64,000 nucleotides of DNA from Planctomycetota bacterium (GTDB taxonomy: Bacteria > Planctomycetota > PLA2), in contig JAPUHK010000024.1 of NCBI GenBank assembly GCA_027297745.1, forward strand, positions 994-64,993, given 5' to 3'. Under the pieces are notes generated by a model. It saw only the letters and a program-made list of their open reading frames with translations, was not told where the DNA came from and did no database searches. Positions 24,786-64,000 of this stretch are shown in pieces; within the stretch, counting starts at the first letter, position 1; each line of letters opens with the position of its first letter. Position numbers and translations under genes: made by a program.

Positions 24786-25087
24786 GCATCAGTCTCTACC
24801 ACTACCTCGGCCTCGGCGCAGCGCTGTTCGCGATCGGCGTGATCGGCGTGGTCACGCGCCGCAACGCGATCGGCCTGCTGATCGGCGTCGAGCTGATCCT
24901 CAACGCCGCCAACATCAACCTGGTCGGCTTCAGCCGTTTCAGCGGAAAGCTGGAGCCCCAGGTCTTCGCCCTGTTCGTCATCGTCCTGGCCGCCGCGGAG
25001 GCGGCTGTGGCCCTGGCCATCGTTCTGCAGCTGTTCGACAAGCGCAAGGACGTGGACGTGGACCGCGCCAGCGCGCTCAAGGGGTGA
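24782..25087 (+). CDS. nuoK: NADH-quinone oxidoreductase subunit K
   Basis: GTG start overlaps the nuoJ stop. GLLIGVELILNAANINLV...VLAAAEAAVALAIVL. Confidence 0.9.
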   Translation: MSISLYHYLGLGAALFAIGVIGVVTRRNAIGLLIGVELILNAANINLVGFSRFSGKLEPQVFALFVIVLAAAEAAVALAIVLQLFDKRKDVDVDRASALKG

Positions 25088-25097
25088 CGCCGAAGTC

Positions 25098-27056
25098 ATG
25101 ATGCACGCCCTTCCCTCCTACGCCGTCTGGATCGTGCTGGCGCCCGCGCTGGCCGCGCTCTTGCAGAACTTTTGCGGCAAGCTGCTGCCGCGCAAGGGCG
25201 ACTGGCTCGTCGTGGGCGGCATGGGCGTCTCGCTCGCGCTGTCGCTGATGGTGCTGATGGAGTGGAGGGCCCTCGATCCGGGCCACTACTTCGAAGGCAG
25301 CGTCACCTGGTTCCAGTTGACGGGCGGCATCTCGTTCTCCGTCGGCATCGTGATCGACGGCCTGACCGCGGCCATGCTGATCGTGGTCACGCTGGTCTCG
25401 CTGCTCGTGTTCGTGTTCTCGATGGGCTACATGAAGGGCGACCGGCACTACGACCGCTTCTTCTTCTGGCTCTCGTTCTTCAGCACCTCGATGCTGATCC
25501 TGGTGGTGGCCGACAACCTGCTGCTGCTGTTCGTCGGCTGGGAGCTGGTGGGGCTTTGCAGCTACAAGCTGATCGGCTTCTGGGGCCAGGACCTGGCCAA
25601 CGCGGAGGCGGCCAAGAAGGCCTTCATCACCACCCGCGTGGGCGACGTCGGGATGCTGATCGGCATCCTCATGATGTACAAGGCCTGCGGCACGCTCTCG
25701 TTGCAGGGCGTGTTCGCGCAGGTGCAGGCCGGAGCGATCCAGGGCAGCGCGCTGACCTGGGCCGGCATCGCGCTGTTCCTCGGCGCGGTCGGCAAGTCGG
25801 CGCAGTTCCCGCTGCACGTCTGGCTGCCGGACGCCATGGCGGGCCCGACGCCTGTCAGCGCGCTGATCCACGCGGCCACGATGGTGGCGGCGGGGGTCTA
25901 CTTCGCGGCGCGCATGTTCCCGATCTTCACGCCGCAGGCGCTGTACTTCATCGCCTGGACGGGCGGTGTGACCGCGCTGCTGGCGGCGCTCATCGCGGTC
26001 ACGCAGACGGACATAAAGAAGGTGCTGGCCTACTCCACGATCAGCCAGCTCGGCTACATGATCCTCGGCGTCGGCGTGGGCGCTCCGTGGGCGGCCATGT
26101 TCCACCTGTGCACGCACGCCATGTTCAAGGCCTGCCTGTTCCTCGGCTCCGGCTCCGTGATCCACGCCATGCATCACACCCAGGAGCTCGAGGACATGGG
26201 CGGCCTGCGCAAGAAGATGCCGGTCACCTTCTGGACCTTCGTGGTCAGCACGCTCGCGCTGGCCGGCATCCCCTTGTTCAGCGGCTTCATGTCGAAGGAC
26301 GCAATCCTGTTCGAGGCGTTGCACAGCGGGCAGACGGCGCTGTTCGCGATCGGGCTCGGTGCCGCCTTCCTGACCGCTTTCTACATGACGCGCATGCTGT
26401 GGCTGTGCTTCATGGGCGAGCCGCGCAACCGGGAGAAGCACGACCACGCGCACGAGTCGCCCGTGAGCATGACGCTGCCGCTGGTCGTGCTGGCACTGCT
26501 CTCGATCGGGATCTTCTGGGGCGGGTTCGCGGACGACTATTTCACGACGCCCGCCTACCACGCGGACTACCCGCAGACGGCGGAGGTGGCGGCGGCTTAT
26601 GCGCCAGCGGGAGAGGTGCGCGCTCATCCACACCACCCGGTGTGGTTCCTGCTGCTGGCGAGCGCGATGGGTCTCGGCGGCATCGCGCTGGGCATCGCGC
26701 TGTTCCGCTCCGGCAAGCGGGACCAGGACACGGTGCTCTTGCCCGAAGGGCTGCACCGCACGGCGAAGAACAAGTACTACCTCGACGACCTCTACCTGGG
26801 CTGGGGCTTCGTCGGGCTCGGTGACACGCTCAGCCGTTGGAGCCGCGTGGCCGACGACCGCGCGGTCGACGGCGCGGTCAACGGTGTCGGCAGCGCGGGC
26901 GTGACCGTCGCCGAGATCAGCGGGGACGCGGACCAGGTCATCGTGGACGGCGCTGTCAACCTGGTCGCGGACGCCACGGACGCGGTAGGCGGCGTGGCCA
27001 GTAGCGCGCAGACGGGGCGCATTCGGAACTACCTGGGAGCAGCACGACGGTCGTGA
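25098..27056 (+). CDS. nuoL: NADH-quinone oxidoreductase subunit L
   Basis: FVGWELVGLCSY...GKSAQFPLHVWLPDAMAGPTPVSALIHAATMVAAG. Confidence 0.95.
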   Translation: MMHALPSYAVWIVLAPALAALLQNFCGKLLPRKGDWLVVGGMGVSLALSLMVLMEWRALDPGHYFEGSVTWFQLTGGISFSVGIVIDGLTAAMLIVVTLVSLLVFVFSMGYMKGDRHYDRFFFWLSFFSTSMLILVVADNLLLLFVGWELVGLCSYKLIGFWGQDLANAEAAKKAFITTRVGDVGMLIGILMMYKACGTLSLQGVFAQVQAGAIQGSALTWAGIALFLGAVGKSAQFPLHVWLPDAMAGPTPVSALIHAATMVAAGVYFAARMFPIFTPQALYFIAWTGGVTALLAALIAVTQTDIKKVLAYSTISQLGYMILGVGVGAPWAAMFHLCTHAMFKACLFLGSGSVIHAMHHTQELEDMGGLRKKMPVTFWTFVVSTLALAGIPLFSGFMSKDAILFEALHSGQTALFAIGLGAAFLTAFYMTRMLWLCFMGEPRNREKHDHAHESPVSMTLPLVVLALLSIGIFWGGFADDYFTTPAYHADYPQTAEVAAAYAPAGEVRAHPHHPVWFLLLASAMGLGGIALGIALFRSGKRDQDTVLLPEGLHRTAKNKYYLDDLYLGWGFVGLGDTLSRWSRVADDRAVDGAVNGVGSAGVTVAEISGDADQVIVDGAVNLVADATDAVGGVASSAQTGRIRNYLGAARRS

Positions 27057-27073
27057 TTCTGCTTTAGGAAACG

Positions 27074-28624
27074 ATGAACGAACTCACGTATGCGATCTTC
27101 CTCCCGCTGGTCGGGATGCTGGCGGTGCTCTTGACCAACAAGGAGAAGCCGCAGCAGGCGCGCGTGGTCGGCTTCCTGTTCACGCTCGTCACCTTCGGGC
27201 TGTGCACCCTGGTGGCGCTGCAGTGCTTCAACGCGGGCGACGTGGACGGCTACCACTACCGCGTCCAGGCAGTGTGGATCGACCTCGGCGGCAGCTTCCA
27301 GGTGCACTACTCGATCGGCGTGGACGGCCTCAGCGGCATGCTGATCTTCCTGACGGGGCTGCTGGGCGTGTGCGCCGCGCTGGCGTCGTGGAACATCAAG
27401 CAGGGCACGCGCGGCTACTGGGCCATGTTCCTGCTCTTGCACACGGGCGTGATCGGCACCTTCGCCTCGCTGGACCTGTTCCTGTTCTACGTCTTCTGGG
27501 AGATCGTGCTCCTGCCGATGTACTTCCTGATCGGCGTGTGGGGCGGCCCGCGGCGCAGGTACGCGGCGATCAAGTTCTTCCTGTACACGCTGTTCGGCTC
27601 GGTCTTCCTGCTGGCCGGCATCCTGGTCACCTACTTCGCGCTGACGGCCACGGGGTCCGGCTTCGCCGGCAACCCATTCAGCATTCCAGAGATCACGGCC
27701 TACGCGAGGGTGACGGACAACATCATGGCGCCCTTCGGCGAGAGCGCGCACACGATCGCGACGCTCGTGTTCTGGGGCCTGTTCGTCGCCTTCGCGATCA
27801 AGGTGCCAGTCTTCCCGTTCCACACGTGGTTGCCGGACGCCCACGTCGAGGCGCCGACGCCCATCTCCGTGATCCTGGCGGGCATCCTGCTGAAGCTCGG
27901 CGCGTACGGCATGCTGCGCATCGGGTTCCCGTTCTTCCCAAAGATCTTGCACGAGATGGCCTTCTATCTCGGCGTGCTGGGAATGATCAACATCATCTAC
28001 GGCGCGCTGGTGGCCATGGCGCAGACCGACTTCAAGCGGCTCGTGGCCTACTCGTCGGTCTCGCACATGGGCTTCGTCATCCTCGGCTTCGCCGCGATGA
28101 CGCCGGAATCGCTGAACGGCGCGATCCTGATGATGTTCAACCACGGCACGATCAGCGGCCTGTTGTTCCTGGTGGTGGGCGTCGTGTACGACCGCGCGCA
28201 TCACCGCGACCTGGGACGTTTCGGCGGGCTGATGTGGAACATGCCGATCTACGCCGCAATCAGCGGCGTGGCAATCTTCGCCTCGCTCGGCCTGCCCGGC
28301 TTGAGCGGTTTCATCGGCGAGATACTGACCCTCCTCGGGTCCTTCAAGACGACCTTCTACGAGCACGCCGGCCTGATCACGGTCGTGTGCACGATCGGCC
28401 TGGTGTTGACCGCGGCCTACTACCTGCGGGCGCTGCAGCGCGTCTTTTTGGGCGAGACCAACCCTGAGTGCGAGTCGTTCCCCGACGTCGACACGCGCGA
28501 GATCGGCTCGATGGTGCCGCTCCTGGTGCCGACGATCGTCTTCGGCATCTATCCCGCGCCGCTGATCGACCTGATCCAGGGTCCCGTGAGTAGCCTCGTG
28601 CTGATGGTGAAGAGTCTGGGCTGA
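27074..28624 (+). CDS. nuoM: NADH-quinone oxidoreductase subunit M
   Basis: FVFWEIVLLPMYFLIGVWGG...FPFHTWLPDAHVEAPTPISVILAGILLKLG. Confidence 0.95.
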   Translation: MNELTYAIFLPLVGMLAVLLTNKEKPQQARVVGFLFTLVTFGLCTLVALQCFNAGDVDGYHYRVQAVWIDLGGSFQVHYSIGVDGLSGMLIFLTGLLGVCAALASWNIKQGTRGYWAMFLLLHTGVIGTFASLDLFLFYVFWEIVLLPMYFLIGVWGGPRRRYAAIKFFLYTLFGSVFLLAGILVTYFALTATGSGFAGNPFSIPEITAYARVTDNIMAPFGESAHTIATLVFWGLFVAFAIKVPVFPFHTWLPDAHVEAPTPISVILAGILLKLGAYGMLRIGFPFFPKILHEMAFYLGVLGMINIIYGALVAMAQTDFKRLVAYSSVSHMGFVILGFAAMTPESLNGAILMMFNHGTISGLLFLVVGVVYDRAHHRDLGRFGGLMWNMPIYAAISGVAIFASLGLPGLSGFIGEILTLLGSFKTTFYEHAGLITVVCTIGLVLTAAYYLRALQRVFLGETNPECESFPDVDTREIGSMVPLLVPTIVFGIYPAPLIDLIQGPVSSLVLMVKSLG

Positions 28625-30183
28625 TGCTGCTGGGTGCGGAAGCCTTTATCCCCGACGTCTCGGCGTTGTTCAGCCACTTCGGCGCGGAAGTCGTGCTGGC
28701 GTTGGGGATCCCCTTGCTCCTCGTGGCGGACCTGTTCACCCGCCGCAACAAGGAGTCGGTCACCGGCGCTCTCTCGCTGGTGCTGTTGACCGTCGCCCTC
28801 GTGCTCGGGCTCTGGCAGGACTCCTCCAGCAGCGTCGGTCTGACGAGCCTCTTGCGCGCGGACGGGCTGGCCAAGGGCTTCCGCGTGATCGCGCTGGCCA
28901 GCGGCGTGATCACCGCGGTGGCAGCACTGCGCGGCGGTGACGCGGTGCGCCACCGGACGGAGTTCTTCGTGCTCCTGATGGGGGCCGTACTCGGCGCCTG
29001 CCTCACGGCGGCCGCGAACGAGATGGCCATGCTGTACCTCGCGATCGAGACGCTGTCGATCGCCGGGTACCTGCTGGCCGGCTTCAAGCGGCGCGATCCG
29101 CAGGGCTCGGAGGCCGCGCTGAAGTACATCATCTTCGGCGCCATCTCCTCCGGCATGATGCTGTACGGCCTGACCTTGCTGTACGGCTTCGGCGGGACGA
29201 GCCTCTTGACCACGCCGCCGGGCGCCCCTGAAGGCACCGTTTCGCTGCAGTCCTATCTGCAAGAGAACGCCTCGGCGCTCGCCATGAAGCCCGCCTTCAT
29301 CGCCGCCGTGGTGCTGGTGTTCGCGGGCCTGGCCTACAAGATCGCCGCGGCGCCGTTCCATTTCTGGTGCCCCGACGTCTACCAGGGCGCGCCCACCTCG
29401 GTGGCGGGTTTCCTGGCCGTTGCCGGAAAGGGCGCCGGGCTGGCCGCCTTCATCCGCATCGTGCAGGCCGTCACCGGCGGCGCCGGCGACCACATCACGG
29501 ACCTCTTGGCCAGGCACAACGACGTGATCCGCACGGTGCTGATCGGCATGTCGATCGCGACCATGACGATCGGGAACGTAGCCGCGCTGCGCCAGCGCAA
29601 CGCCAAGCGGATTCTGGCCTACAGCGCCATCGCGCACGCGGGCTACATCCTGATGGGTCTCACGGTCACCAGCCGCGCGGGCGCGACGGCCATGCTCTTC
29701 TACATGGGCGTCTACGTGTTCATGACGTTCGGCGCCTTCTTCATGGTGGCGCTCGTGGAGCGCGAAAAGGGTAGCTGCGACCTGTCGGCCTTCGAGGGGC
29801 TCGGGTTCCGTGCGCCCTTCTTCGCCGTGTCCTTCGCGATCGTGCTGATCAGCCTGACGGGCCTGCCGCCGACCGGCGGCTTTTGGGCCAAGGTGTTCCT
29901 GTTCGAGGGCGTGTTCAGCTACGGCGGCGCGCACTCCTCGAGCCTGTACCTGTGGTTCGGCGTGATCGGCCTGCTCAACGGGGTCATCTCGCTGGTCTAC
30001 TACGCCCGCTTCCTGAAGGCCATGTACCTGGCCGACCCGGAGCACAACACCGGCTCCGGGCTGGAGCTCGGCCTGGCGGACAAGAGCATGGTGTTCGCCA
30101 TGACGCTGCCGCAGCTGGTGCTCGGCGTGATGTTCGCTGGGCTCTACGAGACGGCGCAGCTTCTGGTCGTGGATCTCTTCTGA
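28624..30183 (+). CDS. nuoN: NADH-quinone oxidoreductase subunit N
   Basis: YLAIETLSIAGYLL...AAAPFHFWCPDVYQGAPTSVAGFLAV. Confidence 0.95.
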   Translation: MLLGAEAFIPDVSALFSHFGAEVVLALGIPLLLVADLFTRRNKESVTGALSLVLLTVALVLGLWQDSSSSVGLTSLLRADGLAKGFRVIALASGVITAVAALRGGDAVRHRTEFFVLLMGAVLGACLTAAANEMAMLYLAIETLSIAGYLLAGFKRRDPQGSEAALKYIIFGAISSGMMLYGLTLLYGFGGTSLLTTPPGAPEGTVSLQSYLQENASALAMKPAFIAAVVLVFAGLAYKIAAAPFHFWCPDVYQGAPTSVAGFLAVAGKGAGLAAFIRIVQAVTGGAGDHITDLLARHNDVIRTVLIGMSIATMTIGNVAALRQRNAKRILAYSAIAHAGYILMGLTVTSRAGATAMLFYMGVYVFMTFGAFFMVALVEREKGSCDLSAFEGLGFRAPFFAVSFAIVLISLTGLPPTGGFWAKVFLFEGVFSYGGAHSSSLYLWFGVIGLLNGVISLVYYARFLKAMYLADPEHNTGSGLELGLADKSMVFAMTLPQLVLGVMFAGLYETAQLLVVDLF

Positions 30184-52990: not shown

Positions 52991-53557
52991 ATGCGTAAGG
53001 GAACGATCGCCCTGTGTCTACTCGTCTGTGCTGCAGGCACCTACGCGGCAGTCGAGTGGACCGTCGGCAACGGAGACGCAGGCGGGGCCAATCTGCATCA
53101 GATGGGCAAGTCCGGCATCAAGGCTCGCATCCGTATCGTGGATCACGGTGACCCGGCCGCGGGTCTCGAGGTGACGGGCACGGCCACGGGCCTCGACCCG
53201 GGCCAAGCCTATTTCTCGCTGTTTTACGACAGCAGGGCCAAGCCCTCCGGTCCTTCGGCCTGCGCGCCCAACGTGCCGGGCGCCCTGACCCCGCCTCAGA
53301 TGTTCATCTCCTTCTGGCAGGTGGACGGCAACGGCAACGGCACGCTGCACGTGACCAAGACCGGCCCCTCCTACGCCGCTCTGGGCGCCCTGGGGGGGCC
53401 ATGTCGATCCGTCTGGGCGCCACCGGCGCGCTGCAGGCCTGCGGTAAGGTCACTCCCGCCGACGAGTCCGCGCGCACCTGCCGCCTCCAGCGTTGACCCA
53501 CGATCCCAACGAAAAGCGGGGCGCCCGTTTCAGGGCGCCCCGCGCTGTTGGCTGTGA
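52991..53557 (+). CDS. Secreted hypothetical protein, frameshifted at a G7 tract (probable true stop at 53494-53496)
   Basis: MRKGTIALCLLVCAAGTYA signal peptide. After GGGGGGG (53392-53398) the annotated frame turns Arg/Pro-rich and reads through a terminator hairpin. The other frame gives AMSIRLGATGALQACGKVTPADESARTCRLQR* with high GC3. Confidence 0.65.
   Translation: MRKGTIALCLLVCAAGTYAAVEWTVGNGDAGGANLHQMGKSGIKARIRIVDHGDPAAGLEVTGTATGLDPGQAYFSLFYDSRAKPSGPSACAPNVPGALTPPQMFISFWQVDGNGNGTLHVTKTGPSYAALGALGGPCRSVWAPPARCRPAVRSLPPTSPRAPAASSVDPRSQRKAGRPFQGAPRCWL
53516..53543 (-). terminator. Rho-independent terminator after the 11-heme cytochrome gene
   Basis: GCGGGGCGCCC-n6-GGGCGCCCCGC. On the minus strand it is followed by TTTTCGTTGGG. 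Confidence 0.65.
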
Positions 53558-53566
53558 GTCCGTGGA

Positions 53567-56395
53567 CTAGGGTCCGCTGACGTAGTTGCCGGCGTTGCCC
53601 CCGATGTTGCCGTTGGCGTCCAGCCAGGAGTCCAGGTGGATTCCGATGGCCGGGTCGGGGTTGGTCAGCCTGTCGATCAGCGTGCCCGTCAGCGGTCCCG
53701 CCATGGTCGGGTTGGGCGTGCCCGTGCGCAAGCTCGGGCCCGTCCCCGGCATGAGCGGGTGGTTGCTGGAGCTCGTCGGAGTTCCGTCCGCGAGCACGAT
53801 GCTGTCCAGGTTGTAAGCGATGCGGGTCATGAACGTGGCCGGGTCGAAGGCCGTCGCCGGCGCGACCGTCACGTTCTGGATGCCCGGATCGGCGAAGATG
53901 CCGTACCGGTTCGGGTTCTGGTCCAGCGGGTTGATAGCGCCGCCGTTCCCGTCGAACAGGAACAGCCCCGTACCCAGGCCGGCCACCATGTGCACCCAGA
54001 AGGGTGAGTTCATCTGGTTGCCGGAGTTCTGGCCGAAGTGCTGCCTCAGCTCCGTGAAGTCCAGTTGATCGTAGCTTCCGCTCGCCATGGCGGAACGGAA
54101 GGCCACGTACTCGGTCCCGTACTGCTGCATACCCGCCTCGGTGATGTGGCACGCGACGCAGTAGCGCGGGCCCTCCATGGTGGAGGTGACGCGGCCGCGG
54201 ATCGAGTGGGCCATCATCGCGTTGTGACCGAGCGAGGGCGTTTGGTTGGGGTCGCTCCCCTGCGCCTTGCGGTCGGAGAACGTGAAGATGCTGGACAGCT
54301 GGTTGTTGCGGTCCTCCCACTGGAAGAACATCTTCGTGTTCGAGCTGACCTGCGTGATCTCGTTGTGCGGGCTGATGCCCAGCGCCATGAACACGGGCGA
54401 CTGGTACACGAACTCGGCCTCGTCCTCCTCGAAGACGATGCGCTCGCCCGTGATGTTGCTGAAGTCATTCGAGTACTCGCCCTTCAGGTGACAGCCCATG
54501 CACGTGTTCGTCCACGAAGCGTGGCAGGACGCGCAGTCCAGGTCGTCCGTGTGGCTGAAGTTGCTCGGGACCGCGTTGTTCGCCTGGATCGGACCTATGC
54601 CGGTCGTGCCCAGGCCGTCGTCACGGCCCATCGCATAGGAGGCCTTGTCGCTGTACAGGGGCGCCCCGCTGAACGGGTGCGTCCGGCCCGTGTTCACGGT
54701 GACGTCCAGCGTCTGCGGGACGAAGTGACGCGCGCCCGTGAGACGGCTGTACAGGTAGAAGTGGCCGTCGCTCTCCAGCACGACGTGCGCCAGGGTGTTC
54801 CCCTCGCCGTCCACCGCCAGCTCCTGGGTGGTGTTGTCGTAGGCCGTGCCTTGAGCCGTCTGGGCATAGGCCGCGACGCCGCCGTGGCAGCTCTCGCAAC
54901 GGATCCCCACGGCGTGCTCCATGCGGCTCACGATCTTGCCGCCGCTCGGGGAGGTCACGTCGCCGCCGTGCAGGTCGAAGCTGCCGTGGCAGTCGATGCA
55001 GCCCATGCCGGCCTCGTAGTGCACGTCGGGCGGGGTGTCGTCGCGGCCGTCGTCGTCGTAGTCCTCCTCGAGGAGGTACTGGTTGCGGTTGCGCCCGTTG
55101 AACTCGCGGTTCCCCAACCGGATCAGGACGCCGTTCTGGTCGTAGATCGGCAGGTTGGGGTCGAACAGGCGCGTGTCGCCGGAGGTCGTCCGGTAACTTC
55201 CCGGCTGCGACGGGTACTGGAAGCCGCGCCGCACGTCCTGGTTCTGGTCGAGGCGGATGCCCCAGTACTGCATGACCGTGCGGTTCGAGCCCTGGTGGCA
55301 GCCGGCGCAGGCGTAGTCGTCGATGCCCTGGACGAACTCGCCGCTGGACAACGTCTTGGCCACGGTGCGGATCAGGTGGCGGGCGACGTGCGGCAGCTCG
55401 GGCTCGTCGATGTCGTCCGGATCGTACGGCTCCATGCGGTTGAGGTTCGGATCGTTGCTGGTGGAGCGCCCGCTCAGGCTGTGGCGCATGTGGCACGCCG
55501 AGCAACCCGAGCCGCGGTAGTCGCCGTAGCGGTTGTTCGCGCCGGCGCTGCCGAGGTGGCAGTCTCCGCAGGTGTAGGCGATCTGCTCGTGATAGAGCTT
55601 CGCCAGCGGGGAGTCCGTGATCGCCTGGCCCGTCAGCGGATCGATGTCGTCATCGAGCTCGGCGGCGTCGAAATCCGGGTTGTTGCGGATGTCGTTCGGG
55701 CCGTTGTTGAAGCGCCGGCTGTAGACCGGGAACTCCATCAGGTTTTGCACCGAACCGAAGGTCGTCGGGTCGAAGCTCTGGTCCGTGACGGCGCGAATGC
55801 CCAGGTCGGCGGCCGTGTCCTCGTAGCCCGTGTACCCCATCTGGTTGTCCACGCCGGCCGCGAACATCGCGCCGGAGAAGATGCCCATCTCGGTGGCGAT
55901 CGGGCTCTGGGACACGATCTGCGCGTGGTTCGCGTGGCACTGGCCGCAGCTGCGGTTCTGCGTGACCACGCGGATGTCGGCCGGGCTGACGAACTGCAGC
56001 CAGTCCAGCGCGCTGTAGGTCTGCCCGTTCGCGGCCGTGTAGTCCGGGAACTTGTCCGGACCGGCCAGGGTCAGCCGGTTGAAGTAGGCGTGGTCGTTGT
56101 TGATCCAGTTCTGCCGGTCGCCGATCTCGGGCGGCGCCGGGACGTGGCTCGAGGCCCTGTCCGTCCCGTTCGGGTTTCCGCCGTGGCAGGTGGTGCACAG
56201 CAGGTTGCTGGCGCCCGTGAAGGGGTGTGGGTTCTCGAGGCCCGGGCCCCCGTAGTTGTTGTCCACGGAGCCGTTGTGGCAGGTCATGCACGACTGGGCC
56301 GACGCTGTGATCGCGCGGCCGCTGGAGTCGACGCAGCCCGTCACGACGAACGCCAGTAGGAAGATGACTGAGAGGAGACCTCTGTGATGAGTCAT
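53567..56395 (-). CDS. Large multiheme c-type cytochrome lipoprotein (11 CXXCH)
   Basis: MTHHRGLLSVIFLLAFVVTGC carries a lipobox. The motifs are CMTCH, CTTCH, CGQCH, CGDCH, CSACH, CAGCH, CIDCH, CESCH, CASCH, CMGCH and CVACH. Confidence 0.9.
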   Translation of the reverse strand: MTHHRGLLSVIFLLAFVVTGCVDSSGRAITASAQSCMTCHNGSVDNNYGGPGLENPHPFTGASNLLCTTCHGGNPNGTDRASSHVPAPPEIGDRQNWINNDHAYFNRLTLAGPDKFPDYTAANGQTYSALDWLQFVSPADIRVVTQNRSCGQCHANHAQIVSQSPIATEMGIFSGAMFAAGVDNQMGYTGYEDTAADLGIRAVTDQSFDPTTFGSVQNLMEFPVYSRRFNNGPNDIRNNPDFDAAELDDDIDPLTGQAITDSPLAKLYHEQIAYTCGDCHLGSAGANNRYGDYRGSGCSACHMRHSLSGRSTSNDPNLNRMEPYDPDDIDEPELPHVARHLIRTVAKTLSSGEFVQGIDDYACAGCHQGSNRTVMQYWGIRLDQNQDVRRGFQYPSQPGSYRTTSGDTRLFDPNLPIYDQNGVLIRLGNREFNGRNRNQYLLEEDYDDDGRDDTPPDVHYEAGMGCIDCHGSFDLHGGDVTSPSGGKIVSRMEHAVGIRCESCHGGVAAYAQTAQGTAYDNTTQELAVDGEGNTLAHVVLESDGHFYLYSRLTGARHFVPQTLDVTVNTGRTHPFSGAPLYSDKASYAMGRDDGLGTTGIGPIQANNAVPSNFSHTDDLDCASCHASWTNTCMGCHLKGEYSNDFSNITGERIVFEEDEAEFVYQSPVFMALGISPHNEITQVSSNTKMFFQWEDRNNQLSSIFTFSDRKAQGSDPNQTPSLGHNAMMAHSIRGRVTSTMEGPRYCVACHITEAGMQQYGTEYVAFRSAMASGSYDQLDFTELRQHFGQNSGNQMNSPFWVHMVAGLGTGLFLFDGNGGAINPLDQNPNRYGIFADPGIQNVTVAPATAFDPATFMTRIAYNLDSIVLADGTPTSSSNHPLMPGTGPSLRTGTPNPTMAGPLTGTLIDRLTNPDPAIGIHLDSWLDANGNIGGNAGNYVSGP

Positions 56396-56419
56396 TTCTG
56401 ATCTCACTTTGCCCGACCC

Positions 56420-56630: not shown

Positions 56631-57278
56631 TCAATTGACGGCCGGCACCCATGCCGTGGGCACGTGGCACTCGTGGCAGTTGTCGACGAAGCCCAGCGGG
56701 ATGTGGGGGGGATTGGTGGTGTTGTTCCGGTCGTCCACGTGGCACGTGACGCACTCGGTGTCCACGGGGATGAAGTTGCCGACCCGCGCGCCCGGGTGGC
56801 AGCGGTAGCAGGCCACCAACGTGTGGGCGCCGAGCAGCGGGAAGCGCGTCCGGTCGTGGAGCGCGATCTGGCCCACGGGGCGCCAGGTCTGCTCGGTGTG
56901 GCAGCGGGTGCAGTCCTTGTCCAGGTCGCCGTAGTGGTAGTCCTCGTGGCAGCCCGTGCAGCCCTGCGAGTGGAAGATCGCCACAGGCCCGCGGTCGTTG
57001 TGGCAACGCAGACATTGCGCCTGCTCATGAGCCCCGTTGAGAGCGAAGCCGGTGTTGGCCAGGTGGTTGAACTTGAAGTCGCTCTTGAGCTTGTTCCAGT
57101 CACCGCCCACGTGGCACAGCTGACAGTCGGCCGGGAACGAGTCGTGCGGCAGGACCGGTCCGAAACCCGCCCACCAACGGTGCTGCTTGCCGGTCAGCGG
57201 GCGCGCGGCGGCGCAGGCCAACAGGATCGCGCTCAGGAGCGCGATCGCGATCGGGCGTCTACGGAATCGGAATCGCAT
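56631..57278 (-). CDS. Periplasmic multiheme c-type cytochrome (7 CXXCH)
   Basis: MRFRFRRRPIAIALLSAILLACAAA is a signal peptide and LLAC could be a lipobox. The motifs are CQLCH, CLRCH, CTGCH, CTRCH, CYRCH, CVTCH and CHECH. Confidence 0.9.
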   Translation of the reverse strand: MRFRFRRRPIAIALLSAILLACAAARPLTGKQHRWWAGFGPVLPHDSFPADCQLCHVGGDWNKLKSDFKFNHLANTGFALNGAHEQAQCLRCHNDRGPVAIFHSQGCTGCHEDYHYGDLDKDCTRCHTEQTWRPVGQIALHDRTRFPLLGAHTLVACYRCHPGARVGNFIPVDTECVTCHVDDRNNTTNPPHIPLGFVDNCHECHVPTAWVPAVN

Positions 57279-57290
57279 GGGTATCAACTC

Positions 57291-59081
57291 TCAAAAGCCC
57301 TTCTGCCAGGTGAACCCAGCGGACCACGAGATCTCCTTGTCGTAGGCGACGACCTCCCCGAACACGTAGACGTCCCAGTTTCCGACGCGATAGACGCTCA
57401 AGCTGCCGCGCAGACGTTGCTGCACCAGGTCGTCCCGGTTCGCGTTCAGGCCGTGGATGTGGTGGAAGGCAAGCTCGTACATCAGGTCCCACCTGCCCTT
57501 GGCCGTCGTGCGGCCGTAGAGGAGACGCACGCCCGCCACGCTCTCGTACTGGCCGATGTTGCCGTAGCCGACGAGGTCCAGGTGCGCCTGGCGCCGCAGC
57601 GTCTGTTCGACGCCGATGTCGAACGCGCCGCCGCTGCCGTCCTCGTCGACCCAGCCGCTGACGTGCCCGTGCAGGCGCCTGTCGGCGCCCAGCATCTTCC
57701 AGAGGTTCAGCGCCAGCCGGTCGAACTCGTTGTTCGCCAGGTCGGCGGCGAAGACGATGGGACGGTATTCGCCCTCCCGCAAGAGCTCTGCGAACGCCCA
57801 GTGCTGATAGAGGAACTGGATGCCGCCCCGGGCGAAGGTGCGGTTCAGGGAGGCGATGGCCTGCGTGATCTCTATGCCTGAGCCCTTGATCGGGTCGCTG
57901 GCGGAGTAGAAGTCGACCCAGATCGTGGCGTGGAAGGCCCAGCCGTCCACCGGCAGAACGTGCATGCGGGCCACCAGGAGGTCGCGGTCCGGGTTGCCGT
58001 TGTTCCAGGTCTTCTGGAAGCCGCCGGCGATCAGGAAACGCTCGTTCGGGTCCTGCACCCACTCGTACCAGCCCGCCAGCTGGAAGTCCTCGAAGGTGTC
58101 GAAGTCGTCGTTCAGCTCCGGCATGTAGCCCATGCTCACGCCGTAGCGGTGCCCGTTGTCGCCCCTATGCGCCCACTGCAGGCCGTCCAGCACGCCGAAC
58201 TCGGGCATGCCGTGCTGCAGGAAGCGGCCGACCTCCCAGCGGTTGCTGTTGAAGCGATTTCCGCCGCGGAAATAGGAGAGGCGGCGCAGCAGGAAGTCCC
58301 CCGTGAGGTCGCTGTTGTACTTGTAGTTCGCCAGGTAGGCCGCCTCCGCGTTGAGGCGGAAGCCGCCGCCCTTGCCGAAGGGATTCGAGTAGGTCAGGTC
58401 CGTGCCGACTCGCAAGTAGGAGCTGGTGAAGTCGCTGTCGGGGTTGTCCGTCACCGCGGCGCTCACATAGGTGAAGCCGGCGAGCCCCTTCCGGCGGTTC
58501 TTGGGGCGCACGGCTCCGGTCTCGGCCAGCAGCGACTTGCTCGTGGACCACTCCTCGTCCTTGTTCTTCCAGGGCGGGTGTTCCGGAGTCTCGCCCTCGG
58601 TGCCCGCGGCAGCAGCGCCTCCGGCTGCCGCTGCACCTGCGGCGACTCCGGCGCCGTCTTTGTCCTTGTCTTCCGGCTCGCCTTCGCCTTCCGGCTTGGT
58701 GCCTTCCCCTTCAGGCTGTCCGCCTTCGGGTTCCGGTTGCAGTTCGGGCTCCGGCTCAGGATCGGGTTGCGTGAAGCGCGAAGCCGGGATCAGCACTTCG
58801 CCGCGCGTGCCCGCTTCGGGAACGAACTTGGCGTCGCGCATCTCGACCACCGCGCTGCGCGCGCGGACCGAGAGCACGGTTCCGGAATAGGTGCCGCCCT
58901 GGCGCGGGAAGAAGGACACGACGTCGCCGATGGCGAGGCCGTCCCGCTTGCCGCGGTCGATGGTGACCGAGGCTCCGGGTCCCGCGGAGCTCACGCGCAG
59001 GGACACACGTTCCAGCTCTTCCTGCGCCCATGCGGACACGCAGGTCCACAGGACCATGGAGAGCAGAATTACAAGCCTCAC
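57291..59081 (-). CDS. Putative outer-membrane beta-barrel protein with periplasmic N-domain and acidic linker
   Basis: The GTG start overlaps the upstream stop (GTGA). The signal peptide is (M)RLVILLSMVLWTCVSAWA. A PE-rich linker (PDPEPEPELQPEPEGGQPEGEG) follows. About 400 aa show alternating amphipathic strands, ending ...SWSAGFTWQKGF with a terminal Phe. Confidence 0.6.
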   Translation of the reverse strand: MRLVILLSMVLWTCVSAWAQEELERVSLRVSSAGPGASVTIDRGKRDGLAIGDVVSFFPRQGGTYSGTVLSVRARSAVVEMRDAKFVPEAGTRGEVLIPASRFTQPDPEPEPELQPEPEGGQPEGEGTKPEGEGEPEDKDKDGAGVAAGAAAAGGAAAAGTEGETPEHPPWKNKDEEWSTSKSLLAETGAVRPKNRRKGLAGFTYVSAAVTDNPDSDFTSSYLRVGTDLTYSNPFGKGGGFRLNAEAAYLANYKYNSDLTGDFLLRRLSYFRGGNRFNSNRWEVGRFLQHGMPEFGVLDGLQWAHRGDNGHRYGVSMGYMPELNDDFDTFEDFQLAGWYEWVQDPNERFLIAGGFQKTWNNGNPDRDLLVARMHVLPVDGWAFHATIWVDFYSASDPIKGSGIEITQAIASLNRTFARGGIQFLYQHWAFAELLREGEYRPIVFAADLANNEFDRLALNLWKMLGADRRLHGHVSGWVDEDGSGGAFDIGVEQTLRRQAHLDLVGYGNIGQYESVAGVRLLYGRTTAKGRWDLMYELAFHHIHGLNANRDDLVQQRLRGSLSVYRVGNWDVYVFGEVVAYDKEISWSAGFTWQKGF

Positions 59082-61156
59082 CGCTTTTCTTCCTTCGCGC
59101 CCCGGCGGAACGGGTTCTCGTCCTCGCCGTGGCAATCGGCGCACCTGCCCCCCATCGGGCGATAGCGGATGAAGTCTTTACCGTTCTCGCGAACTGGTAA
59201 ATGGCAGGCGGAGCAGGCCAGGGGGGTGTGGGCCTCCCCGAGCTGGAAGCTCGAGTCCAGGTCGTGGCGGAAGCTCAGGTCCGTGAAGGCCGCAGCGGCA
59301 GGCCTGTGGCAGCTCCGGCAGTCGGTCAGCCCCTTCACCTCGAACTGCCCGGCATGGGAATCCTGGTGGCAATCCGAGCAGTGGCCGCCCTTGGCGCGGG
59401 CCCAGGTGCGCCCGGCCTCGTCCGGCTCCCGCAGGGGGGTGTGGCAGTCGGCGCAGTCGACTTTCTTGTGCTGGCCGACCAGGGCGAAGCCGGTCCAGCG
59501 CTTGTGGTCGAAGCCGTTCGGGAAGGTCCGGAACGAGCTCTCGCCGTGGCAGCGCTCGCAGCCGGTCTTGCCCTTGAAGGTGCGCGGCATGCCGGGCTTG
59601 TCGAAGTCGTTCTTGTGCGGATCGATGTGGCACGTGTCGCACCCCTCGTACACGCCGAAGCGATCCGAGACGCGGCCGAACGTGCGGCCGAAGCGGTCGG
59701 GTTCCGGGGTGCGCGGGTGGCAGGCCTCGCACTCCTCCTGCGCGTGGGCCGCGACTAGCGGGAACCCCGTCCACGGGCCGTGGTCGAAGGCCTCGGGCGG
59801 GATGTCCCGGAAGTCCGTGGCCAGGTGGCAGTCGGCGCAGCGGCCGTACGTGCTCGCCGATGTCTCCGGCGCGAACTGCTCGAAGAACCCCTCGTGCGGG
59901 TCCGGATGGCATCCGGCGCACTTGACGGGAGTCCCGTGGAACACGCGCGGGCTGCCCTCGATGGGCGCCGCCTCGTGGCACGCGTTGCAGTCGGTCTCGA
60001 TATGGCTGCCGATCAAAGGCAGGGACGTCTCCGCGTGCATCTCGACGCTGAAGATGTGCGGCTCGAAGTAGAGCGTCCCGTGGCAGGCGACGCACGCGCC
60101 GCTCTTGAACGAACCCTCGCCGAACTGGCCGCCGTGGGGATCCTCGTGGCACGCGGCGCAGTCGTCGGCCGCGCGGGCCGGGTAGCGGGCCTTGAAGTCC
60201 TCGTGGTTGAGATCGTGGCAGTCCGCGCAGCCCACTTCGTGATGCGGATCGGTGAGCGAGAACCCGGAGCTTTCGTGCTGCTCCACGGTCATCTCCCCGA
60301 GCTGCCTGTCGTTCCAGGTCGTGTGCTCCGCGCGATGGCACACGTCACAGGCGGCGCCGGTGGGGCGGGAGACCTGCAACGCGACGCCGTCGACGAAACC
60401 CTCGGCGTGCGAGTTCGCGTGGCAGTCCACGCACATGCGCGCGGCCGGGGCGCGATTCTCGCCTAGCGCCTCGAGCGTGTAGGGCTCGTTCGCGTGGCAG
60501 GAGCGGCACTCCATGTTGCTGTGGCCGCCGATCAGCTGCAGGTAGTCCTCGTGGCCGCGCGACTCCAGCTCCGCCCAGGCGCGTTGCCCGTGGCACTGGA
60601 CGCAGCTCAGCGCCGCGTAGCGGCCCTCGTGCACATCCCCGTGGCACGTCGTGCACTCCTGGTCGAGCCCGATGTAGCGCGTCGCGCCCTCCGGCAGGAT
60701 CTCGATGTTCACCTGCAGGTGGCACTCGTTGCAGGCCAGCTCGATGTGCCGGCCGTCCATGGGGAAGCGGATCATGTTGTGGTCGAACTCCGCCGGGTCG
60801 GGCACGCCCGCGGCCGCGAAGCTCTGCCGGTTGACGATGGCGAAGCCCGCGCCGTGGTGCTCGCTGTGGCACAACGCGCACAGCATGGCCTTGTTCCCAA
60901 TCACGCCGTGGAGTCCGTTTCCGGCGGCGATCTGCGCGTCGATCGTCTTGTGGCACTCGAGACACGCATCCGACATGCTCAGGAACAATCCGCCGTGGCA
61001 CGCGGAGCAGCTCTCGCCGCGGTTCAGGTCGCCCACGCGCGCGTGGACGGCCGTGACCTCTCCCGGTGACTTGCGCCCGAGGTGGCCGATCACGACGTAG
61101 AGCACCGCCGCAGCCGAGGCCAGGCCGATCCAGAGGCCGGGACGTCCCAGCTTCAA
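59078..61156 (-). CDS. Membrane-anchored multiheme c-type cytochrome (23 CXXCH)
   Basis: N-terminal anchor GLWIGLASAAAVLYVVIGHL. I counted 23 CXXCH motifs in 692 aa. A recurring module is F-x-H...F-x-L-x-G-x-H-x4-5-CXXCH. The putative TTG start overlaps the upstream stop (TTGA). Confidence 0.85.
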   Translation of the reverse strand: MKLGRPGLWIGLASAAAVLYVVIGHLGRKSPGEVTAVHARVGDLNRGESCSACHGGLFLSMSDACLECHKTIDAQIAAGNGLHGVIGNKAMLCALCHSEHHGAGFAIVNRQSFAAAGVPDPAEFDHNMIRFPMDGRHIELACNECHLQVNIEILPEGATRYIGLDQECTTCHGDVHEGRYAALSCVQCHGQRAWAELESRGHEDYLQLIGGHSNMECRSCHANEPYTLEALGENRAPAARMCVDCHANSHAEGFVDGVALQVSRPTGAACDVCHRAEHTTWNDRQLGEMTVEQHESSGFSLTDPHHEVGCADCHDLNHEDFKARYPARAADDCAACHEDPHGGQFGEGSFKSGACVACHGTLYFEPHIFSVEMHAETSLPLIGSHIETDCNACHEAAPIEGSPRVFHGTPVKCAGCHPDPHEGFFEQFAPETSASTYGRCADCHLATDFRDIPPEAFDHGPWTGFPLVAAHAQEECEACHPRTPEPDRFGRTFGRVSDRFGVYEGCDTCHIDPHKNDFDKPGMPRTFKGKTGCERCHGESSFRTFPNGFDHKRWTGFALVGQHKKVDCADCHTPLREPDEAGRTWARAKGGHCSDCHQDSHAGQFEVKGLTDCRSCHRPAAAAFTDLSFRHDLDSSFQLGEAHTPLACSACHLPVRENGKDFIRYRPMGGRCADCHGEDENPFRRGAKEEKR

Positions 61157-63378
61157 CTTTTGCCCCCGAAGAAGAAGGGGTAGTACGCGAGCGCGTAGAC
61201 GATGTGGATTACCACCAGCAGCACCATCAGCGCCGCCATCCAGCGGTGCAACCAGCGCCAGGTGCCGAGCACCGCGCGCAGGTCCTCATAGTGCGCCGCC
61301 ATGAGCGCCGTGCGGTGTGCCTTGCGCGCGAGCTGCATCGTTTCCTTGATCTGCTCCTCGTCGATGCCCTCTTCACGCCCTTCGTCCTCCAGGCGTGTGA
61401 GCAAGCGCTTCAAGCCGCCCCGGCCGGTCAGCATGGACAGCACGCGCCCAAGGAACCCCGAGCCCCATTGCTTCTTCTCGATCAGCTCATCCACCGCGCT
61501 GCGCGCCCGTTCGCGGTACTCCCGTTGGCCCTGGTCCCACTCCTCGGACATGCGGCCGAGGCGGGCCTTGACCTCCTGCAGCTCCAGCTCGCGTCCGTTC
61601 GCGGCGCGCGGCACGCAGGCGTAGAAGTAGCGTCCGATGGCGCCGGTGACCAACAGCACCGCCAGCGCCCAAAAGGCGTGCCCCGCGACGGTGTTGCCGG
61701 GCGCCATGGCGCCGTGCAGCGTCGCCAGCAAGAGCGCCAGGATGCCCGTGGCGACGTGGCTCGTCATCCAGATCTGCAGGGAGCCGACGTTGAGCCGGAA
61801 GCGCGGCGAACGCCGCACCAGATAAAGGAGGTTCACGAGGATCAGCGCGGTCGCGCCGATGCCCAGCCACAGGCCGAGGCCGAGGCCCGGGCGCAGCAGC
61901 GCATGCTTCGGGTGCGCGGCGCGCGCGGAGGCCGGCAGGCCGTAGTAGTCCGCGTGCACCATGACCCAGACCAACGCGGCCAGCGAGAGTGTGAAGCCGA
62001 TGCCGAGCGCGTGGACCAGGCCCGTGCCCTGCTCGCCGAGCTGGGGCGCCGCCTTGCGCAGCGACGGGTCGAAGGACACGCCCGAGCGTTCGAGCAGCTC
62101 CAGCGGCGCGCTGCCGCCCGCCATCACGAACACCTCGTCGTTCGGCAACGTGCGCGTCGCCGTGCCGTAGCCGCTCTGCACCGTGAGCTCGACCGAGTCC
62201 GGACGGATCGCCCGCACTTCGCTGTTGAACAGGACCTCGAGCTTGCCCTCGCGCAGGCATTCGTCCAGGCGCTCCTGGTTCTTGGGTCGAATGCGGAAGA
62301 AGCTCTCCTTGCGGTACGAGAGCGTCACCTGGTTCCCCGGTTGCTCCGCGAGACCCATGGCCGCCTCGACCGCGCTGTCGCCGCCGCCGACGACCAACGT
62401 GCGCCGGTGCTGGTACGAGTGGGCGTCCAGCAGGCTGTAGGCCACCTTGGACAGGTCTTCGCCTTCCACGCCGAGCTTGCGCGGCGAGCCGCGGCGGCCC
62501 ACCGCCAGACAGACGTTGCGCGCCGTGTAACTGCCGGTCTTGGTGCGCACGACGTAATTGCCGTCGTCGTCCCGGCTAAGACCCACGAACGTCTCCTGGG
62601 AGCGGATCGGCAGCTGCTGCTCCTCCGCGATGTGCGCCCACAGCTCGACCAGCTCTTCCTTCGTGTAACTGGACTTCAGGCGGCCGTAGAGCGGCAGGTC
62701 GACCGGCTGGCTCATGATCAGCTTGCGCCGCGGGTACTTCGCGACCGTGCCGCCGGGCCCGCTCTCCTGGTCCAGCGTCACGAACTTCAGGCCGTGGCGC
62801 TTGGCCTCGAGCGAACACGCCAGGCCGGCGGGGCCGGCGCCGACCACGCACAGGTCCAGCGTGCCGTTGGGGTTGGGCTCGTGCTCCAGGCGCCGCGCGA
62901 CTTCGCCCGCTACGGCCGTTCCGTGGTCGACGGCGGTCTTGATCAGCGAGTGCGCGGTCACCTCACCCGCGAGGAACAGCCCGGGCGAGCCCACGGCCTC
63001 GAGCTGTTCGGTCAGGACCGGGATGTCCCGGCGCTCGGCGATGTCGCTCAGCGTGACCTTGATCGCGCCGACGGGGCACTCGCGCTCACACAGGGCATGG
63101 CCGACGCAGCGCGCGCCGTGCACGACCATGGCCTGGCCGTGCACGAGCTTCAGCACCTGGTCCTCGGGACAGACGTCGACGCACGTGCCGCAGCCCAGGC
63201 AGCGGGACAGATCGACGACGGGTTGGGCGAGCTGGGCCTTGTCACTCCCCTGACGGACCGCCTGCTCACGGTCGCCCAGCGCGCGGCGCATGCGCCGGAG
63301 CTCCAGGCGCCGCGCGATCGCCACCATGAGGGATAGGCCTAGGGCGACTACGACTCCAATAAGGAGGGGCCAACTCAT
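61153..63378 (-). CDS. Inner-membrane fusion protein: TM anchor + ferredoxin-type FeS domain + FAD/NAD(P)-binding oxidoreductase + C-terminal 5-TM domain with two H-x13-H pairs
   Basis: GGAG Shine-Dalgarno. FeS motifs C60LGCGTCVDVCP and C91VGHALCERECP. Dinucleotide folds VVGAGPAGLA and VVGGGDSAVEAA. His541-x13-His555 and His711-x13-His725 lie in hydrophobic helices. Confidence 0.85.
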   Translation of the reverse strand: MSWPLLIGVVVALGLSLMVAIARRLELRRMRRALGDREQAVRQGSDKAQLAQPVVDLSRCLGCGTCVDVCPEDQVLKLVHGQAMVVHGARCVGHALCERECPVGAIKVTLSDIAERRDIPVLTEQLEAVGSPGLFLAGEVTAHSLIKTAVDHGTAVAGEVARRLEHEPNPNGTLDLCVVGAGPAGLACSLEAKRHGLKFVTLDQESGPGGTVAKYPRRKLIMSQPVDLPLYGRLKSSYTKEELVELWAHIAEEQQLPIRSQETFVGLSRDDDGNYVVRTKTGSYTARNVCLAVGRRGSPRKLGVEGEDLSKVAYSLLDAHSYQHRRTLVVGGGDSAVEAAMGLAEQPGNQVTLSYRKESFFRIRPKNQERLDECLREGKLEVLFNSEVRAIRPDSVELTVQSGYGTATRTLPNDEVFVMAGGSAPLELLERSGVSFDPSLRKAAPQLGEQGTGLVHALGIGFTLSLAALVWVMVHADYYGLPASARAAHPKHALLRPGLGLGLWLGIGATALILVNLLYLVRRSPRFRLNVGSLQIWMTSHVATGILALLLATLHGAMAPGNTVAGHAFWALAVLLVTGAIGRYFYACVPRAANGRELELQEVKARLGRMSEEWDQGQREYRERARSAVDELIEKKQWGSGFLGRVLSMLTGRGGLKRLLTRLEDEGREEGIDEEQIKETMQLARKAHRTALMAAHYEDLRAVLGTWRWLHRWMAALMVLLVVIHIVYALAYYPFFFGGKS

Positions 63379-63435: not shown

Positions 63436-64000
63436 CTACTTGCCGCCGGCGCTTCGCGCCCTGAGCTCCCGGTCCCGGGAGCTGCCGCTGACGTTCATGG
63501 ACGTGGCCTTGCGTCGCGTCTCGCCCTGGCTGAAGGCCGGGGCAGGCGGGCCCTCGACGGGCTGGGCGGCGCTCACGGGCAGGGCGGCCGACTCGACATA
63601 CGCGCGAGCAGCCTTCAGGCAGGCGTCGAACTCGCCGTCGAGATCAGAGACCCGCTTGGCCAGCGCGCGCGCTTCGCCCTGGATCTCGGACACGGCCACG
63701 GGGTTGAGGTCGTTGCCCAGGAAGAGCGCGTGGTCGCGCAGGCTGTTGTTGACCGCATCATAGGACGCCAGGGCGGGCTCCGCGGCCGCGACGATGGCGT
63801 GGTAACGCTCGCGAGTCTCCACCAAGCGGTTGCGGCTGCGCTGGCGCAGCTCCACGCTGCTGATGTCCTTGAGGTCATCGGCCCACTGATCGAAGACCGG
63901 ATCGCTCGAGTCCTTCATGTTCTCGATGCTGTCCCGAAGCTTTTCGGCCTGCTCCTCGGAGTTCTCGATGGCCGTCATGAACTCCCCGTAGGCCGTAACC
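63436..64000 (-). CDS. DUF2959-like protein (5' end probably beyond the window)
   Basis: WADDLKDISSVELRQRSRNRLVETRERYHAIV...NNSLRDHALFLGNDLNPVAVSEIQGE. The frame stays open upstream of the listed Met to the window edge. Confidence 0.6.
   Translation of the reverse strand, partial: VTAYGEFMTAIENSEEQAEKLRDSIENMKDSSDPVFDQWADDLKDISSVELRQRSRNRLVETRERYHAIVAAAEPALASYDAVNNSLRDHALFLGNDLNPVAVSEIQGEARALAKRVSDLDGEFDACLKAARAYVESAALPVSAAQPVEGPPAPAFSQGETRRKATSMNVSGSSRDRELRARSAGGK

Follow-up and report, generated by a model that had tools for sequence, protein, structure and literature searches.

An ExtM-like undecaheme lipoprotein cytochrome as the possible distal component of an electron-export module in Planctomycetota

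The window considered here, meaning the whole stretch of DNA that was analysed, comprises 64,000 nucleotides (nt) from a Planctomycetota bacterium (contig JAPUHK010000024.1 of assembly GCA_027297745.1, positions 994 to 64,993) and carries on its minus strand a gene for a 942-amino-acid (aa) lipoprotein cytochrome c with eleven heme-binding motifs, hereafter the 11-heme cytochrome. Sequence comparison identifies its family as a large, so far unnamed one within Planctomycetota (Saltatorellus clade), which forms a branch of the ExtM-like multiheme cytochrome superfamily. We estimate at about 50 per cent the probability that the protein is the distal, acceptor-facing part of a six-gene trans-envelope electron-export module, a role suggested by its conserved operon context (flavocytochrome b, 23-heme cytochrome, putative outer-membrane barrel, and 7-heme lipoprotein).

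The 11-heme cytochrome and its family

The gene occupies positions 53567..56395 of the window (minus strand, stop codon included), as established from the open reading frame (ORF), the motif count, the GC content at third codon positions (GC3), and full-length homologues. Its frame starts with ATG, an alternative in-frame GTG lying 4 codons upstream at 56407, and has a GC3 of 0.93, which is typical for coding sequence, in a window of 68% GC. The CXXCH motifs begin at residues 36, 67, 150, 276, 298, 363, 466, 500, 621, 632, and 746; a protein of this Cys and His composition would contain 0.02 such motifs by chance. A motif scan of the 942 residues found no CX3CH, CX4CH, or CXXCK variants, and the only cysteine outside the heme motifs is C21, in a lipobox (FVVTG↓C) preceded by a hydrophobic signal segment. 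The protein is acidic (isoelectric point 4.8), with a mass of roughly 100 kDa.

Three parts can be delimited, all on the minus strand. The signal peptide and lipobox (residues 1-21; 56333..56395) are recognised by direct reading of the sequence and by conservation among homologues. The heme-bearing core (residues 36-750; 54146..56290), which holds the 11 CXXCH motifs and beta-rich motif-free stretches, is supported by the invariance of the motifs, an alignment with ExtM-like proteins, and an AlphaFold2 (AF2) model. The C-terminal 192 residues (751-942; 53570..54145), hereafter the tail, follow the last motif, CVACH, and carry no heme motif; they were assessed by the same alignment, by AF2 confidence, and by a tail-only homology search, and the peptide that a first-pass annotation of this DNA had quoted from them begins at residue 822. 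Heme density is 86 aa per heme, compared with 31 in the 7-heme (218 aa) and 30 in the 23-heme (692 aa) cytochromes encoded upstream. The first-pass annotation had described 11 CXXCH motifs over 942 aa, a motif-free tail of ~190 aa, and a contrast in density with the upstream cytochromes, all of which the ORF confirms; its identification of a lipoprotein multiheme cytochrome likewise stands, lipobox C21 and the 11 motifs both being conserved in homologues.

An intrinsic-terminator-like hairpin of 11 G-C pairs followed by a T run (53516..53543, minus strand), recognised from the sequence, lies 24 nt past the stop codon. Converging on it from the plus strand is a 188-aa ORF (52991-53557) with a signal-peptide-like start (MRKGTIALCLLVCAAGTYA), which failed the GC3 coding filter.

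A protein search of a collection of 5.8 billion proteins returned at least 1486 relatives, the best 120 of which are 880-1105 aa long and 56-69% identical over 95-100% of the query; among these 120, the names, where given, are 'hypothetical protein', and the organisms, where given, are Planctomycetota metagenome-assembled genomes (MAGs). Scanning one genome per GTDB species revealed at least 352 genomes that encode a relative, almost all of them Planctomycetota MAGs, together with two cultured strains, Saltatorellus ferox Poly30 and Rohdeia mirabilis Pla163. Both strains come from particle biofilms in the Baltic Sea (10.1101/817700), and their GC content of ~70% fits the composition of the window.

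In an alignment of 35 sequences, all 11 CXXCH motifs are invariant in the 34 homologues (57-71% identity), no full-length member lacks the lipobox Cys (which 96% of a 47-sequence set also have), and identity is ~50% in the tail versus 55-79% in the core. A profile search of 1.84 billion cluster representatives yielded 1124 relatives at E up to 1e-3. Among them are full-length members that have diverged to 32-51% identity, with a lipobox and 10-11 hemes, and compact lipoprotein cytochromes (600-820 aa, 10-11 hemes), to which the ExtM model gives 165-331 bits along most of its length. No description of the family or its operon was found in the literature searched; general surveys report that Planctomycetota MAGs carry novel, unassigned multiheme clusters (10.1101/2022.03.26.485925; PMC10732223).

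The conserved operon

The genes follow one another on the minus strand in the order DUF2959 protein, flavoprotein, 23-heme cytochrome, 617-aa protein, 7-heme cytochrome, a 235-nt gap, 11-heme cytochrome, and terminator. Synteny was sampled in 80 loci, with linkage counted in the 51 that have at least 9 kb upstream. All four partners (flavoprotein, 23-heme cytochrome, putative barrel, and 7-heme cytochrome) occur together in 39 of the 51 loci, and the 23-heme and 7-heme cytochromes in 49; among the full 80, the 7-heme gene is syntenic in 70 and the DUF2959 gene in 31. The clustering of periplasmic and lipoprotein multiheme cytochromes that marks a conduit is thus found here, with the genes for the 23-heme, 7-heme, and 11-heme cytochromes on one strand. 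The cluster membership assumed in the first-pass annotation is upheld as well: the 11-heme gene closes a conserved operon of cytochromes and a putative barrel and is followed by the strong terminator. Of the 49 loci in which its distance from the cluster was determined, 32 have it less than 600 nt away, 9 at 0.6-3 kb, and 8 farther off than 3 kb.

In S. ferox (NZ_CP036434, locus L021, 5272-10000), asnB (asparagine synthase) and two other genes, including one for a CarboxypepD_reg-domain protein, intervene between the 11-heme gene and the cluster; because the intervening genes are on the opposite strand, the 11-heme gene needs its own promoter there. Distances of 3-8 kb between the 11-heme and 7-heme genes were also seen in loci L005, L019, L032, L042, L058, and L063. 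In a variant locus type (e.g. L054), the flavoprotein is split from a separate gene for a DUF4405-like membrane subunit, and a 592-aa protein with no Pfam match is encoded between a 7-heme-like gene and the 11-heme gene. The gene neighbourhoods of two distant relatives (P0150 and P0253) were uninformative.

The nearest partner (56631..57287, minus strand) is a 218-aa heptaheme lipoprotein cytochrome (MHC7), identified by its 7 CXXCH motifs, conserved His residues, and lipobox; lipobox C25 and 7 further His are conserved at 98%. Upstream of it lies the gene for the 617-aa protein (57291..59144, minus strand), a secreted, putative outer-membrane beta-barrel recognised by a signal peptide, a beta-signal, and a period-2 pattern. 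This protein consists of a small N-terminal domain, an acidic P/E/G-rich linker (residues ~125-190), and a predicted C-terminal barrel region. The last residues of its homologues read G[FL]x[LV]Q[RK]xF, which is the classical beta-signal of outer-membrane proteins, and residues 200-617 show a modest excess of the amphipathic period-2 pattern. It has no sequence match in Pfam, NCBIfam, or the Protein Data Bank (PDB), and a barrel profile searched against the PDB gave nothing meaningful; from its sequence features it is probably a new porin family for a cytochrome conduit.

The next gene (59078..61156, minus strand) encodes a 692-aa cytochrome (MHC23) with 23 CXXCH motifs and one N-terminal hydrophobic helix, as judged from motifs and helix prediction, and with a weak match to the DmsE family (60.9 bits). 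Translational coupling with the flavoprotein gene is suggested by a 4-nt overlap between the stop codon of that gene and the TTG start of this one. The length of the 23-heme cytochrome would be sufficient for a periplasm-spanning wire.

The flavoprotein gene (61153..63378, minus strand) encodes a 741-aa membrane iron-sulfur (FeS)-flavocytochrome, assigned from Pfam and NCBIfam matches, prediction of transmembrane (TM) helices, and His conservation. From the N-terminus, it comprises TM helix 1, a 2x[4Fe-4S] ferredoxin domain, a Pyr_redox_3 FAD/NAD(P) domain, and five TM helices. The His pairs H541/H555 and H711/H725 are each 14 residues apart on one TM helix and are 97% conserved, and the membrane part matches Ferric_reduct (PF01794) and DUF4405 (PF14358), both below the gathering threshold. 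DUF4405 proteins have been shown experimentally to bind heme b and are proposed to be transmembrane electron carriers (PMC11334425). An Arg-rich segment after TM helix 1, taken together with the positive-inside rule, would place the FeS and FAD domains in the cytoplasm. In combining two 14-residue His pairs on two TM helices with a cytoplasmic FAD/NAD(P)H domain in one polypeptide, the flavoprotein is like NOX, FRE, MsrQ, and DUF4405 proteins; it differs from them in its additional 2x[4Fe-4S] domain and in a flavin domain of TrxR/YpdA rather than FNR type. It thereby resembles an NAD(P)H-fed electron exporter of NOX/MsrQ/DUF4405 type, an unusual entry for a multiheme conduit. First in the conserved set is the gene for a DUF2959 protein (63436..63999, minus strand; Pfam, 79 bits, profile positions 63-188 of 190), the N-terminus of which is cut by the window end.

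Relation to ExtM and the heme-free parts

The best NCBIfam match of the 11-heme cytochrome is ExtM (NF040943, 'selenite/tellurite reduction operon c-type cytochrome ExtM'), where it scores 59 bits over a single stretch (residues 455-514) and the cutoff is 800; the same model is matched by all 47 members of the extended family, none of them near the cutoff. An hhalign comparison of the family with 13 ExtM-like proteins gave a probability of 100% (E 8.6e-98) over 615 columns; query residues 5-893 are covered, and the order of the aligned heme motifs is common to both. Given this probability on the one hand and the low score against the equivalog model on the other, the sequence evidence makes the protein a remote homologue of ExtM that is outside the ExtM equivalog and unrelated to MtrC/OmcA.

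MtrC, OmcA, and UndA of Shewanella are lipoproteins with 10-11 hemes, a heme density comparable to that of the 11-heme cytochrome, and beta-rich heme-free parts, and they are encoded beside a barrel and a cytochrome able to insert into that barrel (as in the MtrCAB structure). The N-terminal lipoprotein signal (FVVTG↓C21) is a likeness to them. A Pfam scan of the 11-heme cytochrome returned generic c3/c7 matches and PF22113 (MtrC/MtrF domain II/IV) at 20.8 bits, under the cutoff of 30; TIGR03507 (OmcA/MtrC) was not matched by the protein itself and was matched weakly by 3 of 47 relatives; and a fold search of its model against PDB chains gave no structural match, the MtrC, MtrF, OmcA, and UndA fold included. 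The kinship to MtrC/OmcA or HAO that the first-pass annotation had proposed to check is therefore absent in sequence and fold searches. Neither by sequence nor by fold did the protein prove similar to solved NrfA, ONR, OTR, HAO, or MccA, apart from a weak match of a ~65-residue segment to the heme-4/5 region of NrfA in PDB sequence searches (E 0.09 with the single sequence and 0.006 with the profile as query). Homology and fold searches placed it in no characterised periplasmic enzyme family, the outcome that the first-pass annotation had named as refuting its reading.

ExtM (GSU2935 of Geobacter sulfurreducens), for which 12 hemes and a mass of 68 kDa are predicted, is a cytochrome of unassigned function conserved in all Geobacter species, where it is encoded in the extHIJKLMNOPQS cluster next to a porin-like gene (PMC5877670); its neighbour ExtKL has been described as a polysulfide-reducing selenoenzyme (10.1101/2025.11.18.688581). 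Besides the N-terminal lipobox, the 11-heme cytochrome has in common with ExtM and ExtM-like proteins nine conserved His outside the motifs, at positions equivalent to its residues 57, 84, 336, 340, 459, 476, 557, 615, and 730, and with ExtM-like proteins the C-terminal elements GLGSGxF and LDxIV..G..H. It differs in having 11 rather than the 12 CXXCH reported for ExtM (PMC5877670) and in its greater length, 942 versus ~600-700 aa. Its locus also lacks the Rieske/cytochrome b components ExtNOPQS as well as ExtKL/MccSep, offering instead an FeS-flavocytochrome b, 23-heme and 7-heme cytochromes, and a putative barrel, and it belongs to another phylum.

Together with Met 303 and Met 589, these nine His are conserved superfamily-wide, so that 11 candidate distal ligands match the 11 hemes, and the superfamily alignment contains no conserved extra Cys, Lys, or Tyr that could serve as a ligand. 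Judging by this conservation (the AF2 model contains no hemes), each heme is probably a six-coordinate electron-transfer centre with one of these candidates as its distal ligand. Three His in the tail (H786, H802, and H879) were considered as universal heme ligands and rejected, since their invariance is confined to the close family and their conservation across the wider set is under 85%.

The extra length of the protein relative to compact ExtM-like proteins is due to 17 insertions, totalling 272 aa, many of them acidic, distributed over the whole chain (e.g. residues 230-258, 401-427, and 594-610); the low heme density thus results from scattered insertions rather than from one heme-free domain. 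In the tail, ~83 aa align with the ExtM-like C-terminus, including GLGSGxF (query residues 805-815) and LDxIV..G..H (862-879), while ~109 aa are family-specific (757-795, helical; 823-860; 883-896; 914-919; and 931-942), mainly as two insertions and a C-terminal extension. The tail measures 175-225 aa in close family members, decreases to 120 aa in the most divergent full-length relatives, and reaches 355 aa in one member (P0090); in ExtM-like relatives it is 59-195 aa, or ~446 aa with extra domains in two (superfamily range 59-448 aa). This spread makes the C-terminus a variable site in the superfamily and suggests, as far as sequences go, a docking site for add-on modules. The two long tails belong to P0257 and P0258, distant ExtM-like proteins with 11 hemes; a scan of P0258 gave weak matches to choice-of-anchor B and methanethiol-oxidase-like (beta-propeller type) models.

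A homology search with the tail alone recovered fragments of the same family and no other architecture, and hence gave no sign of an independent module. The AF2 model, built from 47 diverse sequences, has a mean predicted local distance difference test (pLDDT) score of 91.0, 80-98 in the tail, and a predicted template modelling (pTM) score of 0.90; it replaced an earlier run with 35 close homologues (pLDDT 57, Foldseek noise only). Beta-rich segments lie at residues ~400-445, 513-559, and 631-694, and a pTM of 0.90 over 942 residues means that the tail is modelled as packed on the core, not as a free module. The heme-free tail that the first-pass annotation had singled out is accordingly not a discrete domain, being partly common to ExtM-like proteins, otherwise found only in this family, and part of one AF2 assembly.

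Two side observations concern the tail. Most homologues have two extra Cys there (~residues 819-845; DENGCPVNPLD....R.GC.GVAPA), which presumably form a disulfide; both are lost in the window protein, which has an extra segment of ~13 residues (GIFADPGIQNVTV) at the same spot. A hematite-binding-type motif (Ser/Thr-Pro-Ser/Thr; TPT at 871-873) was dropped as a candidate because it is not conserved.

The suggestion in the first-pass annotation that the heme-free parts might be catalytic domains also fared poorly, as nothing points to catalysis and the 11 conserved ligand candidates match the 11 hemes. We consider it an even bet that the motif-free stretches and tail are scaffold, composed of ancestral beta-rich segments and the 17 family-specific, largely acidic insertions, with no separate catalytic domain; they may shape contacts with partners or the acceptor.

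The strongest competing explanation, though an unlikely one, is that the protein is a periplasm-facing multiheme enzyme in which one heme is catalytic and acts on a soluble substrate (N, S, or Se oxyanions, or polysulfide), the insertions and tail forming the pocket. Its heme density, sparser than that of wire-like cytochromes, the weak NrfA-like segment, and the appendages (some with extra domains) at the variable superfamily C-terminus could all be accommodated in this way, and the ExtM cluster has been tied to selenite/tellurite and polysulfide reduction (PMC5877670; 10.1101/2025.11.18.688581), but ExtM itself has no demonstrated catalytic role. No atypical active-site motif or ligand (CXXCK, CX15CH, or distal Lys, Tyr, or Cys) was found in the protein, which has canonical CXXCH throughout and no spare Cys; the conserved His and Met candidates equal the hemes in number; and an operon-encoded putative barrel and second lipoprotein cytochrome would be superfluous for a periplasmic enzyme.

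A possible electron-export module

In the export module that we propose, cytoplasmic NAD(P)H would reduce the FAD of the flavoprotein, from which electrons would pass to its two [4Fe-4S] clusters and then, across the inner membrane, to two b hemes held by the His pairs of its NOX/MsrQ/DUF4405-like membrane domain. The b hemes would deliver them to the 23-heme cytochrome (59078-61156), acting as a membrane-anchored periplasmic wire, and this in turn to the 7-heme lipoprotein (56631-57287), which would work with the outer-membrane barrel (57291-59144). The last carrier would be the 11-heme cytochrome, which would take electrons from the 7-heme lipoprotein and hand them to an acceptor that is extracellular or particulate, for example humic material or Fe(III)/Mn(IV) oxides. 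The data show directly the sequence features and how they are conserved, the homology with ExtM-like proteins, the synteny, and the absence of a solved structural relative; how the cofactors are ligated, the topology, the direction in which electrons move, the location at the surface, and the acceptor are what we infer in this scheme. The reading of the protein as a distal lipoprotein cytochrome, put forward in the first-pass annotation, is reasonable; a surface location and a terminal reductase role may be surmised from the gene context.

Parallels exist in the architecture of Geobacter porin-cytochrome clusters (PMC4282303) and in the logic of the Geobacter ExtABCD cluster, to the extent that the latter is cited in PMC13194489. 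No component of the window is similar at family level (Pfam, NCBIfam) to OmaB-OmbB-OmcB or ExtABCD, however. The entry point is an in-operon NAD(P)H-type flavocytochrome b, as opposed to the quinol oxidases ImcH and CbcL of Geobacter conduits, and the periplasmic cytochrome differs in having 23 hemes and a membrane anchor. The locus would be a porin-cytochrome-type conduit whose distal cytochrome comes from a new, expanded ExtM-like branch and whose components are unlike those of Geobacter. Eight of the 80 loci are from MAGs of Fe/Mn-oxidising tunnel biofilms, the source of several of the MAGs, in which oxidised metal minerals are abundant (PMC10732223).

Several points weigh against electron export by this module. 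The barrel assignment consists of a signal peptide, a beta-signal, and weak amphipathicity only, and the axial ligands are candidates taken from sequence conservation, with a heme-free AF2 model. The gap of 235 nt to the 7-heme gene in the window, the more than 3 kb that separate the 11-heme gene from the cluster in 8 of 49 loci, and the opposite-strand genes that intervene in S. ferox all loosen the link between the 11-heme cytochrome and its presumed partners. Surface exposure of lipoproteins in Planctomycetota is not predictable from sequence. Furthermore, NAD(P)H electron export by itself conserves no energy, so that reductive metal acquisition or redox balancing would be as plausible as respiration. 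Finally, cultured members of the clade have been described in ordinary aerobic culture, and no metal reduction was reported for them (10.1101/817700).

Some of these points would suit a different role, which we regard as less likely even than the enzyme: the protein could be a membrane-tethered periplasmic store or relay (a capacitor) that exchanges electrons with the 23-heme and 7-heme cytochromes and other periplasmic redox enzymes in the enlarged planctomycetal periplasm. A lipobox by itself does not specify the surface, the 11-heme gene is linked more loosely than the other four, and Geobacter ExtM has been found in several fractions, the periplasm included (PMC5877670). Yet the gene stands at the conserved end of an operon that also encodes a putative barrel and a lipoprotein cytochrome, an arrangement known from conduits with outward-facing lipoprotein cytochromes, and its large acidic insertions have no obvious use in a simple relay. 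An inward module akin to MtoAB/PioAB, in which the 11-heme cytochrome would draw electrons from Fe(II), Mn(II), or a reduced mineral outside the cell and send them inside, is improbable: porin-cytochrome modules are able to run in both directions, as established for Mto/Pio and Mtr homologues (PMC11429942), and the eight loci from Fe/Mn-oxidising tunnel biofilms (PMC10732223) would fit it, but at the inner membrane the operon supplies an NAD(P)H/FAD/FeS flavocytochrome b and not a quinone reductase or a link to a cytochrome oxidase, NAD(P)+ reduction by Fe(II) is strongly uphill with no energy-coupling element seen in the cluster, and the cultured relatives are heterotrophic (10.1101/817700).

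Returning to electron export, a more specific and rather doubtful version is that the operon encodes a previously undescribed type of exporter. It would bypass the quinone pool, a NOX-like FeS-flavocytochrome b feeding a 41-heme chain (23 + 7 + 11) that spans both the outer membrane and a periplasm of unusual width and terminates in the 11-heme cytochrome, for whose fold no solved relative is available. Particle-attached Planctomycetota of the kind cultured aerobically would use it to dissolve Fe/Mn oxides reductively for acquisition or to dispose of electrons at low oxygen.

To our knowledge, the mechanism of extracellular electron transfer has been worked out in only a few Proteobacteria and Desulfobacterota. 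The family described here is carried by hundreds of species of Planctomycetota, recovered from sediments, soils, groundwater, sludge, and metal-oxide biofilms; all members of the family are annotated as hypothetical. If the export reading is true, a major, mostly uncultured planctomycetal clade would gain a role in metal and humic redox cycling, a conduit would be fed directly by an NAD(P)H flavocytochrome and not by quinol oxidases, and ExtM-like cytochromes, present in all Geobacter yet unexplained, would obtain a first functional context. The idea can be tested directly because S. ferox Poly30 and R. mirabilis Pla163 carry the genes, and a confident AF2 model with no relative in the PDB makes the 11-heme cytochrome worthwhile for structure determination.

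Elsewhere in the window, three consecutive Proton_antipo_M genes (NuoL/M/N-like; 24897-30183, plus strand) point to a complex I or Mrp-type module and thus a conventional NADH-linked membrane system within the same 64 kb.

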